The position numbers and the translations under genes are program-made. The notes below the pieces were generated by a model. The model saw nothing but the letters and a program-made list of their open reading frames with translations, was not told where the DNA came from and searched no databases. Positions 36,707 through 57,029 of a stretch of 64,000 nt of DNA are shown here, piece after piece; positions within the stretch are counted from its first letter, which is position 1; each line of letters starts with the position of its first letter. Source of the DNA: a virus; UHGV virus genome UHGV-0351052; one strand, written 5' to 3'.

Positions 36707-37232
36707 ATGCGAGTACCGTCTTTAACCGTTCTTCAAACTTCCGAAGAGTATTTTGGCGTTCAGCTCTTTGCTTTTTGTAAGTTTCAATACGCTCTGAAAT
36801 GAGAGTGTATCGTTCATTTACTGATTCTTTCATAAAATCAGGAATTTCACGAGAAGCTTTAATCTCGTCAAATTTATCAATAACAGCTTGCTCTTCAGCA
36901 ATTAAGTTATCATACATCAAAATATCTTTCTTGATGAACTCAATATCTTCTTGAGTTACACGAGATAATTTAGATGCTTTATCCTTTTTGTACTGTTCGT
37001 TAGTATCACGAGACCAGTGTAATGTACGATTTTTATTCGTATTCTTGTAAATTTCTACAATACCAATCTCATCAATAATAACGATCCAATTCCAACGGGA
37101 TTTGTAAATTTGTCCTCCATCAACCGTGATTTCACCTCCGATTGAGATGTCATTAAAGAACTTGCTTTGTGCTTCTGATTTAAATTTACCATCGTTGTAA
37201 TTTACCAGGTTGAAAATATCTTTAGCGTTCAT
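36705..37232 (-). CDS. hypothetical protein (175 aa)
   Basis: ORF track. Confidence 0.5.
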   Translation of the reverse strand: MNAKDIFNLVNYNDGKFKSEAQSKFFNDISIGGEITVDGGQIYKSRWNWIVIIDEIGIVEIYKNTNKNRTLHWSRDTNEQYKKDKASKLSRVTQEDIEFIKKDILMYDNLIAEEQAVIDKFDEIKASREIPDFMKESVNERYTLISERIETYKKQRAERQNTLRKFEERLKTVLA

Positions 37233-37254
37233 TTTGTGTTCCTCCGTAGTTGAT

Positions 37255-37290
37255 AGTTGTATAGTACCACAGAGGAACGATCTTGTAAAC
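37255..37290 (-). promoter_or_regulatory. T4-type early promoter
   Basis: gttgtatagtaccac -10 region and gtaaac 37285-37290. Confidence 0.55.
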
Positions 37291-37292
37291 CA

Positions 37293-37607
37293 CTAAAAGA
37301 AACTTCTTTCACAATTTTTTCCACTGAACCAAGCGCTCACTGCTTTCTTAGTCTCAGGAGCAGTGTTATCCATAAACCATTCAAAGGCAGCCTTTTTATG
37401 ATTCTGGAGGGCTTCTCGGGCTTTAATCTGCTCACGGTCTATTAACACTAACATATGAGCCTTTCTTGTCACCAGGGGCTTCTTATGATTTTTTGAATAC
37501 TCCCAATCATTTGTCCATCGCATCGTTGTTGCGAATTGAAATACTGCTTCTTTAATTTTAGTTTCGTAAATTTCACGAGCCTTTGAGTATAACATCATTA
37601 CCTCCAT
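37293..37607 (-). CDS. hypothetical protein (104 aa)
   Basis: ORF track. Confidence 0.5.
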   Translation of the reverse strand: MEVMMLYSKAREIYETKIKEAVFQFATTMRWTNDWEYSKNHKKPLVTRKAHMLVLIDREQIKAREALQNHKKAAFEWFMDNTAPETKKAVSAWFSGKNCERSFF

Positions 37608-37697
37608 TTACCAGTTTAATTCTAGTCATCTTTTTAATGGCAGTCCATATAATCTATTTCTGAACTGCCTTTTTGTCTTAGAAGTCCTCTTATGAAT

Positions 37698-38678
37698 TTA
37701 TTTCAGAAGAGTAACCTCAGCGATTTCTTCCCAACCGTTTTTGTCGGTCATAATGAAGTCAGCAAGATAAAGAGCAGTACGCAGTGAAACATTACGTAAA
37801 CGGTTAACATTGACTTTCATCCATGATAATGCTTTATAAGTTTCTTCATCAGAAAGACCACGCTTTTGCATCATGTCGGTTGAAAGAATAACATCTTCAA
37901 CCCTGACCATAATTTCTTCATTAGTGTGAACACCCAAATCCAAATAAACTGAGCGGGACACTAATGCTTGTAAATGTGGAGCAAGTTTAGTACCACGGTC
38001 TAATTCGCGGTCAATATCAACGTTTGTGATAAAAACAATCGTTCCTTTAAATTCAAACTCACGCTCAATGCCTTTTTCTTCTAAGTAAGAAGATGCGGTG
38101 CTCCAGCAGACTTTACGGGTCTCTCCGGTGTCCAGAGCAGCTTTCAGAAGATTAAGAATGTCCATATCAGAGAAAACATCCACATCATCAATCAAAAGGA
38201 CAGAATTCTCTTCACGATTATTCCAGAGCTGTTCATAAAGACCGATACCAGAGATTTTACCGTTAATGCTTTTATATTCAATGTATCCATTATCATTTGC
38301 TTTATTTAAAGCTTTATCTAAAGAATACGTTTTACCAATACCCGCCGCACCAGAGATAATTAATGAACGAATGTTTCCGTTAATAATACCATTCGTCATC
38401 ATTCCCATAACATTAAATCTTTTATTAATGCGGGTTTTCATATCTTCATATGATTCTTTAACTTCTTCAACTTTTACACCATCATATGAAATGTCTGATT
38501 TGTAAACCCAAACACCGCGACGCTTACCGTCAATTTCAACAAAAACTTTACCATCTCCTTGCGCATCTACCGGAGCATTATCTGGGAACCATTCGCCTAA
38601 GAGCTCAAAAGTTCCAGAGATTTCTTTACCGAAGTAGATACCCTTATTGATAGTTACAGTTTTCATTTTATTCTCCAA
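37698..38678 (-). CDS. P-loop NTPase (Walker A GAAGIGKT, Walker B LLIDDVD), unknown function
   Basis: Motifs read directly from translation. Confidence 0.6.
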   Translation of the reverse strand: MENKMKTVTINKGIYFGKEISGTFELLGEWFPDNAPVDAQGDGKVFVEIDGKRRGVWVYKSDISYDGVKVEEVKESYEDMKTRINKRFNVMGMMTNGIINGNIRSLIISGAAGIGKTYSLDKALNKANDNGYIEYKSINGKISGIGLYEQLWNNREENSVLLIDDVDVFSDMDILNLLKAALDTGETRKVCWSTASSYLEEKGIEREFEFKGTIVFITNVDIDRELDRGTKLAPHLQALVSRSVYLDLGVHTNEEIMVRVEDVILSTDMMQKRGLSDEETYKALSWMKVNVNRLRNVSLRTALYLADFIMTDKNGWEEIAEVTLLK

Positions 38679-38700
38679 TTTTACATTTGTTTTGATAGGG

Positions 38701-38732
38701 TAATAGTATCACACTACTACCCTACTGTAAAC
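38701..38732 (-). promoter_or_regulatory. T4-type early promoter
   Basis: taatagtatcac -10 region and gtaaac 38727-38732. Confidence 0.5.
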
Positions 38733-38735
38733 AAT

Positions 38736-38999
38736 TTATTTTAACGTTCGCCAAATTTTTACTGCTTCACGGCGAGATACTTCTACAGCTCCAAGTTCTA
38801 CAGCTTTTTGGCGTCGGCGAGCGTGTAAGTCATAATGTTTAATGCGTTTATCTTGAAACCAAGAACGTTTCATTCCTATTGCTTCTGCCATTTCATGAAG
38901 CTCTTCAATATCTCCATCAGTGAACATATGACAATTTTTAGTTGGATGACCGCGAAGTTTCCATCCATGATTCATTAAAACATCTACGTAAACTGTCAT
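38736..38999 (-). CDS. DUF4031-like small protein (87 aa)
   Basis: MTVYVD...HMFTD...ELHEMAEAIG...W pattern resembling the DUF4031 family as remembered. Confidence 0.45.
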   Translation of the reverse strand: MTVYVDVLMNHGWKLRGHPTKNCHMFTDGDIEELHEMAEAIGMKRSWFQDKRIKHYDLHARRRQKAVELGAVEVSRREAVKIWRTLK

Positions 39000-39145
39000 T
39001 GATTCTTCTCCAAATAAGTTTCGATAATTTTCTGAGCGAGATAAACTGCATTATCTTCAGTTGCATCTTCTAAGAAACTTTCAAAACACTCTGAAATTTC
39101 TTCTGTGTCAATCAACTTTTTTACTTCAATTGGTGTAATTTTCAT
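38996..39145 (-). CDS. hypothetical small acidic protein (about 49 aa)
   Basis: ORF 38996-39214 trimmed to Met downstream of promoter. Confidence 0.4.
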   Translation of the reverse strand: MKITPIEVKKLIDTEEISECFESFLEDATEDNAVYLAQKIIETYLEKNQ

Positions 39146-39180
39146 TTTGTTTTTCCGTTTAAGTGTTTGTTTTGATAGTT

Positions 39181-39212
39181 GTATAGTACCATAAAGCTTT
39201 ATGCTTGTAAAC
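39181..39212 (-). promoter_or_regulatory. T4-type early promoter
   Basis: gtatagtacc -10 region and gtaaac 39207-39212. Confidence 0.55.
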
Positions 39213-39242
39213 AACTTTGTGAAAAATTTTTGAAATAAAAAA

Positions 39243-39260
39243 GGGAGCCCGAAGGCTCCC
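39243..39260 (-). terminator. UUCG-tetraloop hairpin terminator
   Basis: gggagcc-cgaa-ggctccc directly downstream of the nucleotidyltransferase ORF. Confidence 0.6.
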
Positions 39261-39262
39261 TA

Positions 39263-40276
39263 TCATTTATAATAACTTCGGTGGTTTTCAAGATAGACCT
39301 TCTCAAGGAAGTCATCCCAGAAACTCATGTCTACTGTTTTAGGCATACCGTTCTTAGAAGCTTCAGTAGATGCTGCTTCTACTTGATCGACCACATCTTC
39401 CAAAAACTCTTGAACTGTTTTAAATGGATGTTTACCCAACTTCACGTCGAGAATAAATGGAGCGTCTTGAAGTGGATAAACCAAGTCACCAGTTTTGTAA
39501 ATTTCCAATAGTTGGAGTCCACCGCGACAAGCATGGCTCAGAGCTTTCCAGTCAATGCCTTCGTTGGCTTCGGCCTTACGAGCACGTTCACCATATTCAG
39601 CATCTAATTTGTTCAGTGACTGCTTAAGCTCAATAAGAGAAAGCGTTGTCTGATATTTACGACCCAACACAGTGTAGAACATTTGTGGGCCTGTTTTCTC
39701 ATGATTATGGAACACCCATTCACAGAATTCGTTTTCTGGAAGACGATGCTTAATATCTTCAACTTTAGTACGACGCTGCTTAATGGAACCGTCTTCTTGG
39801 TAATCAACCCATTGCTCAGGGATTTGATTAACTACTTTCAATACATCGCGTAATGCAGCCAAACGAGAACCCTTGACACCGTATTTAGAAGCTTGCTTGC
39901 GGACATATCCTAAATAGGATTTCATGTTAGTCGTATAAAAACGAGAACGGTTGTCTTGAATAAACTTCCACACATCAGGCAAATCGGATTTAACCACTAG
40001 TTCAGGTGGAGTGTGAAGCATATCCAACGCTACAGTTTCACCATCTGCTGCTAATTTAAAGAAATATTTAAGACTGTATAGTTCATGGTCAATATCATCT
40101 TTAGTGTTTTTAGATGATGTGTTGTTGGTATTTTTACTCATATGCTCTTTAACATTTCCGATAAGAATATCACGAGCAGGAGGAACAAAGATTTCTTTAA
40201 AATCTACATCAGATTCTGGGGTAGAAGTTCCATAAAGATGACTACCAAAATAGCTTTTCATTACTGTTTTCATCAT
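39263..40276 (-). CDS. Pol-beta-superfamily nucleotidyltransferase-like protein (337 aa)
   Basis: N-terminal GSHLYGTSTPESDVDF (GS ... DxD) signature. Confidence 0.55.
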   Translation of the reverse strand: MMKTVMKSYFGSHLYGTSTPESDVDFKEIFVPPARDILIGNVKEHMSKNTNNTSSKNTKDDIDHELYSLKYFFKLAADGETVALDMLHTPPELVVKSDLPDVWKFIQDNRSRFYTTNMKSYLGYVRKQASKYGVKGSRLAALRDVLKVVNQIPEQWVDYQEDGSIKQRRTKVEDIKHRLPENEFCEWVFHNHEKTGPQMFYTVLGRKYQTTLSLIELKQSLNKLDAEYGERARKAEANEGIDWKALSHACRGGLQLLEIYKTGDLVYPLQDAPFILDVKLGKHPFKTVQEFLEDVVDQVEAASTEASKNGMPKTVDMSFWDDFLEKVYLENHRSYYK

Positions 40277-40758
40277 TTAGCCTTATATTCAATAACAGGA
40301 CATACTTTAGCTTTACGAGCTTTTAAAAATTCGACGATAATAGATTTCTTGGGTTGAATAGGCTCAAGTCCATTTTTGATTCGTTCTTCGTTTTGTACAA
40401 TGAACTCAATTTCTTTATTGAGCTTTCGGTCGTTATATTTGTCTAACAACCAGGAAGGACCAATTACCGCCCCGACAGCAATAAGAACCATAACCGATAA
40501 TGCTAAAATGCCTATACCAATTGAAGCCGGAACTAATGTCCATAGACTACTAAAGACAAAGAATTTAATTAAAATTTCTTGGCCAATTATTGCGGCACCT
40601 GCTAAAGTTGCAAATCCAACAATTGAAACAGCTAATACCGGGAGAAACGTTTTCCAAAAATAAGCACATAACGTTTTTGGACGATTCCATGTGCTATTAA
40701 ATGCCGAGTAAATTTTATAGTGCCAAGAGTTTTCATTAATAATCATAATTATAATCAT
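40273..40758 (-). CDS. hypothetical membrane protein (161 aa)
   Basis: Multiple hydrophobic helices. Confidence 0.5.
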   Translation of the reverse strand: MIIIMIINENSWHYKIYSAFNSTWNRPKTLCAYFWKTFLPVLAVSIVGFATLAGAAIIGQEILIKFFVFSSLWTLVPASIGIGILALSVMVLIAVGAVIGPSWLLDKYNDRKLNKEIEFIVQNEERIKNGLEPIQPKKSIIVEFLKARKAKVCPVIEYKAK

Positions 40759-41276
40759 CCTTTCATTGAAGGTGTAACAGTTGTTAAATACTTAATCATA
40801 GCTTCAGCTTCTGATTTTGATAATGAAATTTCTTCATTGTTTTGACGAATAGAAATAAAATCCGGATGACGGTCACCACCGGCTTTTAAAACACACATAT
40901 AAGTATCAGTTTCATCTTCAATATTTGAAATGATTGAAGCAGTTCCACACGAATGTGGTTTTTGATAAATCAATACAGCTTTTCTTCCACCGTTTGACTG
41001 TTCATAAACTTTTAATACATCAAACAAATCACTTCTTTTATCAATAGCTAAAATGTTATTTTCATCTTCAATGTTAAATCCTTCGGATACTTCATAAAGT
41101 GTCACCCATAAATCACCTATATCGATAGTAGCATTTTCCTTTCCATGACTTTCAAGAGCATGACAAATTTTCTTAATTTCGTCATAACTCATTTTAATAA
41201 TATCATCTCCTTGAATAAGGAAGATGTCATTTTTAAATTCAACACGAATTAAACCGCTTCCACTTGAAATAAACAT
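40755..41276 (-). CDS. hypothetical protein (173 aa), paralog of next gene
   Basis: C-terminal similarity SKSEAEAMIKYLTTVTPSM vs TKDEAIALKTYLDSVIPTM. Confidence 0.5.
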   Translation of the reverse strand: MFISSGSGLIRVEFKNDIFLIQGDDIIKMSYDEIKKICHALESHGKENATIDIGDLWVTLYEVSEGFNIEDENNILAIDKRSDLFDVLKVYEQSNGGRKAVLIYQKPHSCGTASIISNIEDETDTYMCVLKAGGDRHPDFISIRQNNEEISLSKSEAEAMIKYLTTVTPSMKG

Positions 41277-55670: not shown

Positions 55671-55747
<77 letters not shown>

Positions 55748-55750
55748 TAA

Positions 55751-56416
55751 TTAAAATTTCATTTTTCGACCTTTAAACCATCCTTCTGGAATTGGGTCAG
55801 TTTTCTTAATACGTTTAGAAACTTTTTCATCTAATGAATGAATCCACATCATACCAAATTGGGAATTCTTTTCGCCCTGTTGATGTTTATTTCTGGCGTG
55901 AGATTCTTTCATTTTATTAATAGTTTCAGGAGTATGGGTCTTACCCAAGAAAGATTTAGTATTTAAAAATTTCTCTCTATACTTAGGATTATCCCAAAGC
56001 TGTTTAAACCTTTCTGAACCCATTTTACGATATTTTTCTTTAAGGTCTGGGTCGTTCTCAAATCTGGTTTTAAAAGCGGCAGCTCCTTTTAAAGAAGCTT
56101 CTTTCTTTTTATCCAAATATTCTTTAGTGTTTAAATGGTCCCAACCACCTTCACCACCTAATTTCAAATTATAAACATCAGAGCGCTTTAAAAACTCTTC
56201 AGTCACAATATTCTTTTCTGACTCAAACATAGAGGTTTTATCGTCAAAGAACTCTAATATTTCTTTAGAAAAATTTTCTATACCATACTTATCTTGGGCT
56301 CTTTTTAATAATTTACCAGAACCCATATATCCATCATCTAAATTTTCGGTAGAATGAGCGCCTATATAGATTTTATTATTAATTTTATTTGTTATTTTAT
56401 AAATGTAATGGAACAT
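55751..56416 (-). CDS. segB: GIY-YIG homing endonuclease SegB
   Basis: 221 aa; N-terminal YIYKITNKINNKIYIGAH GIY-YIG motif; located between tRNA subclusters as in T4. Confidence 0.8.
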   Translation of the reverse strand: MFHYIYKITNKINNKIYIGAHSTENLDDGYMGSGKLLKRAQDKYGIENFSKEILEFFDDKTSMFESEKNIVTEEFLKRSDVYNLKLGGEGGWDHLNTKEYLDKKKEASLKGAAAFKTRFENDPDLKEKYRKMGSERFKQLWDNPKYREKFLNTKSFLGKTHTPETINKMKESHARNKHQQGEKNSQFGMMWIHSLDEKVSKRIKKTDPIPEGWFKGRKMKF

Positions 56417-56457
56417 AAATATCTCCTATTTCTAAGAGTATTTATGTTCTCAAAATA

Positions 56458-56529
56458 TGGCCCTGGGTGGAATTGAACCACCATCTGGCGATTATGAGTC
56501 GCTTGCTTGAACCTTCCAGCTACAGGGCC
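56458..56529 (-). tRNA. tRNA-Ile (anticodon CAU, Ile2-type)
   Basis: Hand-folded; anticodon loop CUCAUAA; last tRNA of the T4 order Gln-Leu-Gly-Pro-Ser-Thr-Ile. Confidence 0.7.
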
Positions 56530-56535
56530 TTGATA

Positions 56536-56608
56536 TGCTGATTGACGGAATCGAACCGCCGACGTCCTCATTACAAGTGAGGTGCTCTACCTACTGAGCT
56601 AAATCAGC
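56536..56608 (-). tRNA. tRNA-Thr (anticodon UGU)
   Basis: Hand-folded: acceptor GCUGAUU, anticodon loop CUUGUAA, T-arm GGCGG-UUCGAUU-CCGUC. Confidence 0.8.
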
Positions 56609-56615
56609 GAAATTA

Positions 56616-56702
56616 CGGAGGCGATAGGATTTGAACCTATGAGTCGCCGGAGCGACTGCCGGTTTTCAAGACCGGTGCATTAAACCACTCTGCCACGCCT
56701 CC
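56616..56702 (-). tRNA. tRNA-Ser (anticodon UGA), long variable arm
   Basis: Hand-folded: acceptor GGAGGCG, anticodon loop CUUGAAA, long extra arm. Confidence 0.8.
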
Positions 56703-56704
56703 AG

Positions 56705-56778
56705 TCTCCGTGGCAGGATTTGAACCTACGACATTCTGCTCCCAAAGCAGACGCTCTACCAAACTGAGCTACACGGAG
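56705..56778 (-). tRNA. tRNA-Pro (anticodon UGG)
   Basis: Hand-folded: acceptor CUCCGUG, anticodon loop UUUGGGA. Confidence 0.8.
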
Positions 56779-56790
56779 TAAATTAAATTT

Positions 56791-56863
<73 letters not shown>

Positions 56864-56868
56864 AAATT

Positions 56869-56955
56869 TGGTACGAGAAGTGGGACTCGAACCCACAAGG
56901 AAATCATTCCGCAGCATTTTAAGTGCTGTGCCTTTACCAATTTGACCATTCTCGC
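56869..56955 (-). tRNA. tRNA-Leu (anticodon UAA), long variable arm, CCA encoded
   Basis: Hand-folded: acceptor GCGAGAA, anticodon loop CUUAAAA. Confidence 0.8.
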
Positions 56956-56956
56956 G

Positions 56957-57029
56957 CTGGGAATAAAGGACTCGAACCTTTGCATCTAGCAGTCAAAGTG
57001 CTATGCCTTACCAACTTGGCTAATTCCCA
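56957..57029 (-). tRNA. tRNA-Gln (anticodon UUG)
   Basis: Hand-folded: acceptor UGGGAAU, anticodon loop CUUUGAC; separated by 1 nt from tRNA-Leu. Confidence 0.8.

Follow-up and report, generated by a model that had tools for sequence, protein, structure and literature searches.

Three probably independent units at a T4-like nrdC.11–nrdC.10 locus: a predicted RlaP-family nucleotidyltransferase, an AAA+ ATPase and an inserted DUF4031 cassette

INTRODUCTION

The RlaP family of nucleotidyltransferases owes its name to an association with RNA ligases, and its members are predicted to restore nucleotides that are taken by RloC-type nucleases (PMC7824862), an RNA-repair prediction that was attributed to Burroughs and Aravind when it was cited in 2021. 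Two Pseudomonas members, PfRlaP and PaRlaP, add one or two nucleoside monophosphates (NMPs) to RNA 3′-OH ends with a preference for Mn2+, label RNA and not DNA or protein, and rescue the aminoacylation of tRNA that is short of one anticodon-loop nucleotide; the same 2025 preprint names NrdC.11 of phage T4 as a member of the family (bioRxiv 10.64898/2025.12.29.696909). The AAA ATPase and nucleotidyltransferase signatures of the T4 neighbours nrdC.10 and nrdC.11 were published in 2006 (PMC1524935), and RefSeq annotates T4 nrdC.11 as ‘nucleotidyltransferase’. Here, we analyse the corresponding genes at positions 37698 to 40276 of UHGV virus genome UHGV-0351052, a stretch of 64,000 nucleotides that is referred to throughout as the window, in which nrdC.11 and nrdC.10 are separated by a gene for a DUF4031 protein.

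A first-pass annotation of the window had grouped the ATPase, the DUF4031-like protein and the nucleotidyltransferase as one cluster, with the ATPase as a partner of the nucleotidyltransferase. The evidence presented below favours a different reading: the region is probably made up of three independent units of the T4-like hyperplastic early region, namely nrdC.11, for which a function in RNA 3′-end repair is proposed, the nrdC.10 ATPase, and a two-gene cassette encoding a 49-amino acid (aa) protein and the DUF4031 protein, and is not one system.

RESULTS

NrdC.11 has the sequence hallmarks of an RlaP-family nucleotidyltransferase

The best megablast matches of positions 37600–40400 are Tequatrovirus genomes at ∼98% identity (823 phage records matched), by which the window is assigned to a Tequatrovirus, a T4-like phage. 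In RefSeq, the annotations of T4 and of a relative with 98% identity identify the 337-aa open reading frame (ORF) as nrdC.11 and the P-loop ORF as nrdC.10, and tblastn against the T4 proteins gives amino-acid identities of 97 and 99% for NrdC.11 and NrdC.10, respectively. The genes thus have named T4 counterparts, a circumstance that the first-pass annotation had reserved as grounds for abandoning its reading should they be well characterized and of unrelated function, but they are not of experimentally known function. The three genes listed as adjacent are all present and carry the enzymatic motifs ascribed to them, although a fourth gene, the 49-aa ORF (38996–39145), lies between them.

The proposal that the 337-aa protein belongs to the Pol-beta superfamily of nucleotidyltransferases is borne out. 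NrdC.11, which extends over 337 aa from the first ATG (336 aa in the T4 annotation), matches the Pfam family RlaP (PF10127) at 43.9 bits (cutoff 23, E=3e-11) across residues 7–135, and PHROG 388 ‘nucleotidyltransferase’ at E=7e-138. RlaP is the sole Pfam family above threshold, with NTP_transf_2 scoring 13.6 bits, under its cutoff of 21. In an alignment of NrdC.11 homologues that reaches 30% identity (Sinorhizobium phage phiM19 and Vibrio phage K491), residues G11, S12, D23, D25, D60, D61, D63 and E65 are invariant, as is a set of C-terminal residues. Conservation of the GS and DxD residues among orthologues had been put forward as a check on the assignment, and the GS, DxD and DDxDxE motifs are indeed kept down to 30% identity. 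For a profile comparison, 13 RlaP-type ORFs of ∼370 aa were extracted from bacterial genome loci, three of which were checked and found to be PF10127 members (69–108 bits). The alignment of the NrdC.11 clade with these 13 proteins by hhalign has a probability of 99.9% and E=4e-31 over 301 columns. Because it spans query residues 4–324, the homology with bacterial RlaP proteins is full length and includes the C-terminal helical domain. Judged by these comparisons, NrdC.11 is a full-length RlaP-family Pol-beta nucleotidyltransferase.

An NCBIfam search gave no usable match, and single-sequence and profile searches of PDB sequences returned nothing significant for NrdC.10, the DUF4031 protein or NrdC.11, the PfRlaP structure being undetected in the copy searched. 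Many GenBank records label NrdC.10 or NrdC.11 ‘thioredoxin’; the label is unsupported and looks like propagation from the locus name nrdC.n. Similarly, mobD.x ORFs carry the GenBank label ‘molybdopterin-guanine dinucleotide biosynthesis protein MobD’, which looks like propagation from the locus name mobD.n.

Homologues of NrdC.11 are found in operons with RNA end-healing and sealing enzymes

The genomic surroundings of NrdC.11 homologues were compared at 78 viral loci. At seven of these (IMG/VR; homologues ∼40% identical), the RlaP gene is contiguous and on the same strand with genes for an HD-phosphohydrolase/P-loop kinase fusion and an Rnl1-family RNA ligase (PF09511), in the order fusion, ligase, RlaP, and at one more viral locus a homologue of T4 Pnkp is encoded 1.3 kb downstream. 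The genome contig L169 encodes, in a row, RlaP, an Rnl1-type ligase and a T4-type Pnkp, whereas in contig L154 a kinase-metallophosphoesterase-ligase fusion is placed directly upstream of RlaP; a ligase or Pnkp gene adjoins or lies near the RlaP gene at two further loci (L112 and L163). In phage phiM19, the NrdC.11 homologue is flanked by two annotated RNA ligase genes. Together with RlaP membership and the conserved catalytic residues, these ligase/Pnkp operons make RNA or tRNA repair, one of the functions raised by the first-pass annotation, the best-supported role for NrdC.11 on present sequence evidence.

A further neighbour was seen at 14 loci (among L082–L099, and L131), where a protein of ∼360 aa with an N-terminal cytidylyltransferase/NMN-adenylyltransferase-like motif, GRFQPFHYGH, is encoded within 4 kb of RlaP, upstream of it in 13 of the 14. 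The NrdC.11 homologues at these loci are ∼40–55% identical to the window protein.

nrdC.10 encodes a generic AAA+ ATPase that is a neighbour of nrdC.11 by inheritance

The P-loop ATPase had been assigned 326 aa, a length that is not retained here: an ATG at 38666 behind a GGAG gives 322 aa, as in RefSeq relatives, and is preferred to the TTG four codons upstream, which is a mechanical start. NrdC.10 comprises an N-terminal beta-rich domain (residues 1–61), an AAA+ core (73–245) and a helical lid (249–320). Walker A, Walker B, sensor 1 and arginine residues are all present, and the alpha-beta-alpha core followed by a helical lid is that of AAA+ proteins, with Pfam AAA-type matches all below their cutoffs. 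When compared with AAA+ clades (MoxR NorQ/CbbQ, sigma-54 activators, DnaA/ORC/Cdc6 and RFC clamp loaders), none is preferred, and the beta-rich N-terminal domain is without an identified relative; NrdC.10 is a generic AAA+ ATPase with no clade standing out. The designation ‘clamp loader’ that is sometimes given for NrdC.10 in GenBank is unsupported.

In the window, nrdC.11 and nrdC.10 are split by a terminator and have separate promoters. Among 43 viral NrdC.10 loci, an RlaP gene is found within 10 kb in just nine, all of them close relatives with an NrdC.10 of at least 66% identity, and the remaining 34 are without it; in the annotated distant phages PA5oct, Vibrio D480 and Aeromonas 25, no RlaP gene lies within 8 kb of the NrdC.10 homologue. 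Conversely, NrdC.10 is encoded within 10 kb at 23 of the 78 NrdC.11 loci and not at the other 55, three of which have an NrdC.11 that is 82% identical and keep nrdC.9. When neighbours were clustered, nrdC.11 was accompanied by rI, rI.-1, nrdC.9 and the membrane-protein ORF upstream about as frequently as by nrdC.10, the pattern expected from inherited T4-type synteny. Likewise, when the neighbours of 46 NrdC.10 loci were clustered, no recurrent partner emerged beyond close-relative synteny, bar a QueE-like radical-SAM gene (six loci). These distributions suggest that nrdC.10 and nrdC.11 are neighbours by inheritance, and point against the ATPase as a partner of the nucleotidyltransferase.

The QueE-like gene lies within 4 kb of the NrdC.10 homologue, upstream or downstream, at the six loci (L004, L027, L048, L054, L056 and L057), where NrdC.10 identity ranges from 45% down to ∼26%. 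This may be a coincidence of early-region layout.

The 49-aa ORF and the DUF4031 gene form an inserted cassette

The 87-aa protein had been described as DUF4031-like, and Pfam agrees (PF13223, 77.7 bits against a cutoff of 25.6). Its start is overlapped by the stop of the 49-aa ORF (ATGA), indicative of translational coupling. A 72-aa version of the latter, taken from a TTG in the mechanical list, was rejected as its start overlaps the promoter. The T4 genome has no DUF4031 gene by annotation or tblastn, and among phage records DUF4031 accounts for 327, as compared with 1312 for NrdC.10 and 1519 for NrdC.11.

Comparison with T4, in which nrdC.10 directly follows nrdC.11, defines the boundaries of the insertion. 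The window and T4 spacers match exactly across the hairpin and the early promoter as far as TACTATACAACTATCAA, diverge thereafter, and rejoin at TTGGAGAATAAAATG, the nrdC.10 ribosome-binding site. The stretch that is inserted relative to T4 thus holds the 49-aa ORF, the DUF4031 gene and a second early promoter at the distal end of the cassette, and the promoter at 39183–39211, which drives nrdC.10 in T4, has the 49-aa ORF/DUF4031 cassette behind it here. These boundaries make PeSL-mediated recombination the most likely route by which the cassette came to lie between nrdC.10 and the terminator/early-promoter (PeSL) element of T4.

In other T4-like phages, the slot taken by the same pair is instead ∼2 kb downstream of nrdC.10. 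The small ORF has a homologue (37–50% identical in the other slot) directly upstream of DUF4031 in every T4-like locus found; this homologue is acidic and usually overlaps the DUF4031 start (loci L018, L021, L059, L060, L070, L072 and L074, as well as the window). Because the small ORF accompanies DUF4031 whichever slot is occupied, the pair constitutes a mobile unit. The DUF4031 family itself is large (7331 representative clusters) and mostly stand-alone, and when its 150 best representatives were ranked by length, the top ten held no second Pfam domain. In three unrelated contigs, the DUF4031 gene sits among phage early or recombination genes, with no partner genes in common and no RNA-repair genes nearby. 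The inclusion of DUF4031 in a cluster with nrdC.10 and nrdC.11 is therefore not sustained, the gene being a sporadic insert that T4 does without.

Residues D6, H24, Q49, H55, Y56 and D57 are invariant in DUF4031 and fall on three strands of the predicted secondary structure; the conservation of these acidic residues and histidines suggests that DUF4031 is an enzyme or holds a metal site. A more elaborate proposal would make the pair a self-contained, promoter-carrying mobile cassette for a new small enzyme, with an Asp/His/His-Tyr-Asp/Gln cluster on three neighbouring beta-strands and a fold weakly like that of the MnmE-N/GcvT folate-binding domain. The small protein would partner or regulate this enzyme, and the cassette would move between T4-like hyperplastic slots to serve a host-specific counter-defence or takeover function. 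We regard this proposal as quite unlikely in its full form; in a weaker variant of it, NrdC.10 would assist NrdC.11 as a lineage-specific ATPase of T-even phages.

Transcription layout and neighbouring features

All genes of the region are on the minus strand (Table 1), and transcription proceeds towards lower coordinates. The T4-type early-promoter consensus TTTACW N17 TAYWAT, taken from PeSL promoters (PMC4122927), has 17 exact matches in the whole window where 0.35 are expected. All 17 are on the minus strand, in agreement with leftward early transcription of the whole window.

Table 1. Features of the nrdC.11–nrdC.10 region of the window
Feature	Coordinates	Strand	Evidence
161-aa ORF matching a PHROG annotated membrane protein (phrog_944)	40273..40758	-	homologues; overlap with nrdC.11
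nrdC.11, predicted RlaP-family (PF10127) Pol-beta nucleotidyltransferase	39263..40276	-	Pfam; T4 identity; catalytic residues; hhalign
Intrinsic terminator hairpin, UUCG loop	39242..39261	-	terminator scan; T4 sequence identical
T4-type early promoter (TTTACA N17 TACTAT, TG) ahead of the 49-aa ORF/DUF4031 pair	39183..39211	-	consensus scan
49-aa acidic ORF (phrog_6888)	38996..39145	-	sequence reading; homologues next to DUF4031
DUF4031 (PF13223) protein, 87 aa	38736..38999	-	Pfam
Second T4-type early promoter, directly 5′ of nrdC.10	38703..38731	-	consensus scan
nrdC.10, AAA+ ATPase, 322 aa from ATG	37698..38666	-	

Each of the three genes had been credited with its own early promoter and UUCG hairpin. 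Promoters do precede the 49-aa ORF/DUF4031 pair and nrdC.10, but none is found directly before nrdC.11, and a scan of positions 37200–40900 returns a single UUCG-loop terminator hairpin, at 39261–39242 just 3′ of nrdC.11. This hairpin, AGGGAGCC-UUCG-GGCUCCCU followed by a U tract, lies after the nrdC.11 stop and represents the stem-loop half of a PeSL element. The nrdC.11 start overlaps the stop of the 161-aa ORF (ATGA), an arrangement that implies translational coupling, and with its ATG so placed and no promoter directly upstream, nrdC.11 would be read from the upstream transcription unit. A homologue of the 161-aa ORF is upstream of the RlaP gene at 28 of 81 loci. In T4, the mobD homing endonuclease gene stands where the present phage has two other ORFs, the 161-aa ORF being one of them.

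Both early promoters fall within imperfect dyads. That at 39177–39216 has 20-nt arms that are 80% complementary with no spacer and runs from the −35 to the −10 element, whereas that at 38696–38724 has 12-nt arms that are 92% complementary with a 5-nt spacer and overlaps the −10 element. Chance may account for these dyads, or they may have a regulatory or recombination function at PeSL-type promoters. Finally, eight tRNA genes are clustered at 55674–57029 on the minus strand, ∼15 kb transcriptionally upstream of nrdC.11, and correspond to the T4-type phage tRNA region.

DISCUSSION

A proposed role for NrdC.11 in the repair of trimmed tRNA

By analogy with the Pseudomonas enzymes, NrdC.11 would employ Asp23 and Asp25, with either Asp61 or Asp63 as the third carboxylate, and a divalent metal that is probably Mn2+, to catalyse the untemplated addition of one or two NMPs to the 3′-OH of a broken RNA. 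The likely substrate would be a tRNA whose anticodon loop has been cut and then trimmed by an RloC-type host anticodon nuclease, and the tRNA, once returned to full length, would be resealed by the phage Pnkp and RNA ligase 1, whose genes lie elsewhere in T4-type genomes. The most likely role for NrdC.11 is to give nuclease-trimmed tRNA its missing nucleotides back ahead of resealing by T4 Pnkp/Rnl1; both the enzymatic activity and the anti-nuclease function in this phage are inferred. The nrdC.10 ATPase, for its part, has an early promoter of its own from which it is expressed, and shows no demonstrable coupling to nrdC.11. The 49-aa ORF and DUF4031 constitute a two-gene accessory cassette placed between the PeSL element and nrdC.10.

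Several observations weigh against this account. The Pfam RlaP model covers just the N-terminal ∼130–135 residues of NrdC.11, and the Pseudomonas proteins from which its activity is extrapolated belong to a different sequence-similarity cluster, 1a, with NrdC.11 in cluster 5 (bioRxiv 10.64898/2025.12.29.696909). No ligase or end-healing gene is next to nrdC.11 either here, where its neighbours are the membrane-protein ORF, the DUF4031 cassette and nrdC.10, or in T4, in which pseT and rnlA are ∼80 kb away. Absences at the loci compared are soft, as the RlaP hidden Markov model and the single-sequence ligase and Pnkp queries run on them are of limited sensitivity. A T4 nrdC.11 deletion is viable on laboratory hosts (PMC9825161), and any role of NrdC.11 must therefore be conditional. 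With respect to the independence of the units, the adjacency of nrdC.11 and nrdC.10 is kept from Tevenvirinae to Acinetobacter Twarogvirinae phages, and a lineage-specific cooperation between NrdC.10 and NrdC.11 may exist.

Other readings of the locus

That same conserved order, together with the adjacency of the genes on one strand here, is what would be expected if NrdC.10, the DUF4031 pair and NrdC.11 were one module in which, for example, the ATPase remodels or delivers an RNA substrate to the nucleotidyltransferase. NrdC.10 is also very strongly conserved (63% mean column identity), and in several arrangements, among them that of the jumbo-phage contig L033, DUF4031 and an NrdC.10 homologue are no more than ∼2 kb apart. 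A module of this kind is nonetheless very unlikely given that a terminator and separate promoters intervene between the genes, that at most loci of either NrdC.10 or NrdC.11 no gene for the other is found within 10 kb, that some phages keep nrdC.11 and nrdC.9 without nrdC.10, and that syntenic T4 genes such as rI, rI.-1 and nrdC.9 are equally frequent companions. Moreover, DUF4031 homologues occur in prophage-like contigs without either partner, as well as being absent from T4, and it is a ligase and a kinase-phosphatase, rather than an AAA+ protein, that recur in operons with distant NrdC.11 homologues. The functional three-gene cluster with an ATPase partner, as first proposed, is accordingly set aside.

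The first-pass annotation had also raised nucleotide-based host immunity, which NrdC.11 might counteract or mimic. Under this reading, NrdC.11 could be a cGAS/DncV-like synthase of signals or a mimic of one; another option is a minimal nucleotidyltransferase whose target is a protein or a small molecule. The Pol-beta fold is common to NrdC.11, the CD-NTases and minimal nucleotidyltransferases, and nrdC.11 is situated in an early-expressed, dispensable region that is a typical place for anti-defence genes. However, a PADLOC search gave no family at E≤0.01 and no CD-NTase or CBASS match, nor was any such family found in Pfam, where RlaP alone exceeds its threshold; the characterized RlaPs label neither protein nor DNA, and the genomic partners of the homologues are RNA end-healing and sealing enzymes. 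This reading is highly improbable. An extension of RNA 3′ ends for some other purpose, such as mending of the tRNA 3′-CCA or tailing of host or phage transcripts, is easier to accommodate, as the Pseudomonas RlaPs show little nucleoside triphosphate specificity and label full-length tRNAs and rRNAs too (bioRxiv 10.64898/2025.12.29.696909), nrdC.11 does not adjoin pseT or rnlA in T4-type genomes, and the phage has its own tRNA cluster. It is still unlikely, in that, given a mimic of a cleaved tRNA, the RlaPs acted on its 5′ half in preference to the natural 3′ end (bioRxiv 10.64898/2025.12.29.696909), and operons with a ligase and a kinase-phosphatase imply a sealing step after extension.

Implications

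If NrdC.11 does restore trimmed tRNA, it would represent a third component of the classic T4 Pnkp/Rnl1 tRNA-repair counter-defence and would account for how T-even phages might withstand ‘smart’ anticodon nucleases, RloC among them. This repair idea is already in the literature, where T4 NrdC.11 is named explicitly, and the genes have long been catalogued; no new concept is added here. What the present analysis contributes is a negative result, in that the ATPase and DUF4031 genes do not appear to be partners of the nucleotidyltransferase, direct contextual support for RNA repair from phage operons that unite a kinase-phosphatase, an Rnl1 ligase and RlaP, and a clean example of what looks like the insertion of a PeSL-bounded two-gene cassette.

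Comparison with known systems

PeSL-mediated modular shuffling in T4-like phages shows the same architecture as that described here (PMC4122927). In the published PeSL cassettes (PMC2839356, PMC4122927), an indel between close relatives is bordered by a stem-loop terminator with a TTTACW N17 TAYWAT promoter after it, and variable ORFs are carried inside the hyperplastic region, and both traits are found at the present locus. It differs in that its second promoter has no upstream stem-loop, and recombination is read here from the sequence boundaries alone. With T4 nrdC.10 and nrdC.11 (NP_049708 and NP_049709), the present genes share order, orientation and an identical terminator/promoter element after nrdC.11; the distinction is the 49-aa ORF/DUF4031 cassette between them, which is not in T4.

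As for the RlaP family, the Pfam family and the GS/DxD/third-Asp catalytic set are common to the Pseudomonas RlaPs and NrdC.11, and NrdC.11 homologues stand beside RNA ligases and end-healing enzymes, as do the published RlaPs. NrdC.11 differs from the Pseudomonas proteins in that its cluster is dominated by phage members and its gene resides in the T4 nrdC–rI hyperplastic region and not in an RtcB or ligase operon. The T4 Pnkp and Rnl1 pathway, which acts against the PrrC anticodon nuclease, is likely to be the downstream machinery of NrdC.11, and NrdC.11 homologues are contiguous with Rnl1-family ligases and with Pnkp-type or analogous kinase-phosphatases. Within such a pathway, NrdC.11 would be needed just where nucleotides are lost, as with RloC-type nucleases, and not for the repair of simple PrrC cuts.

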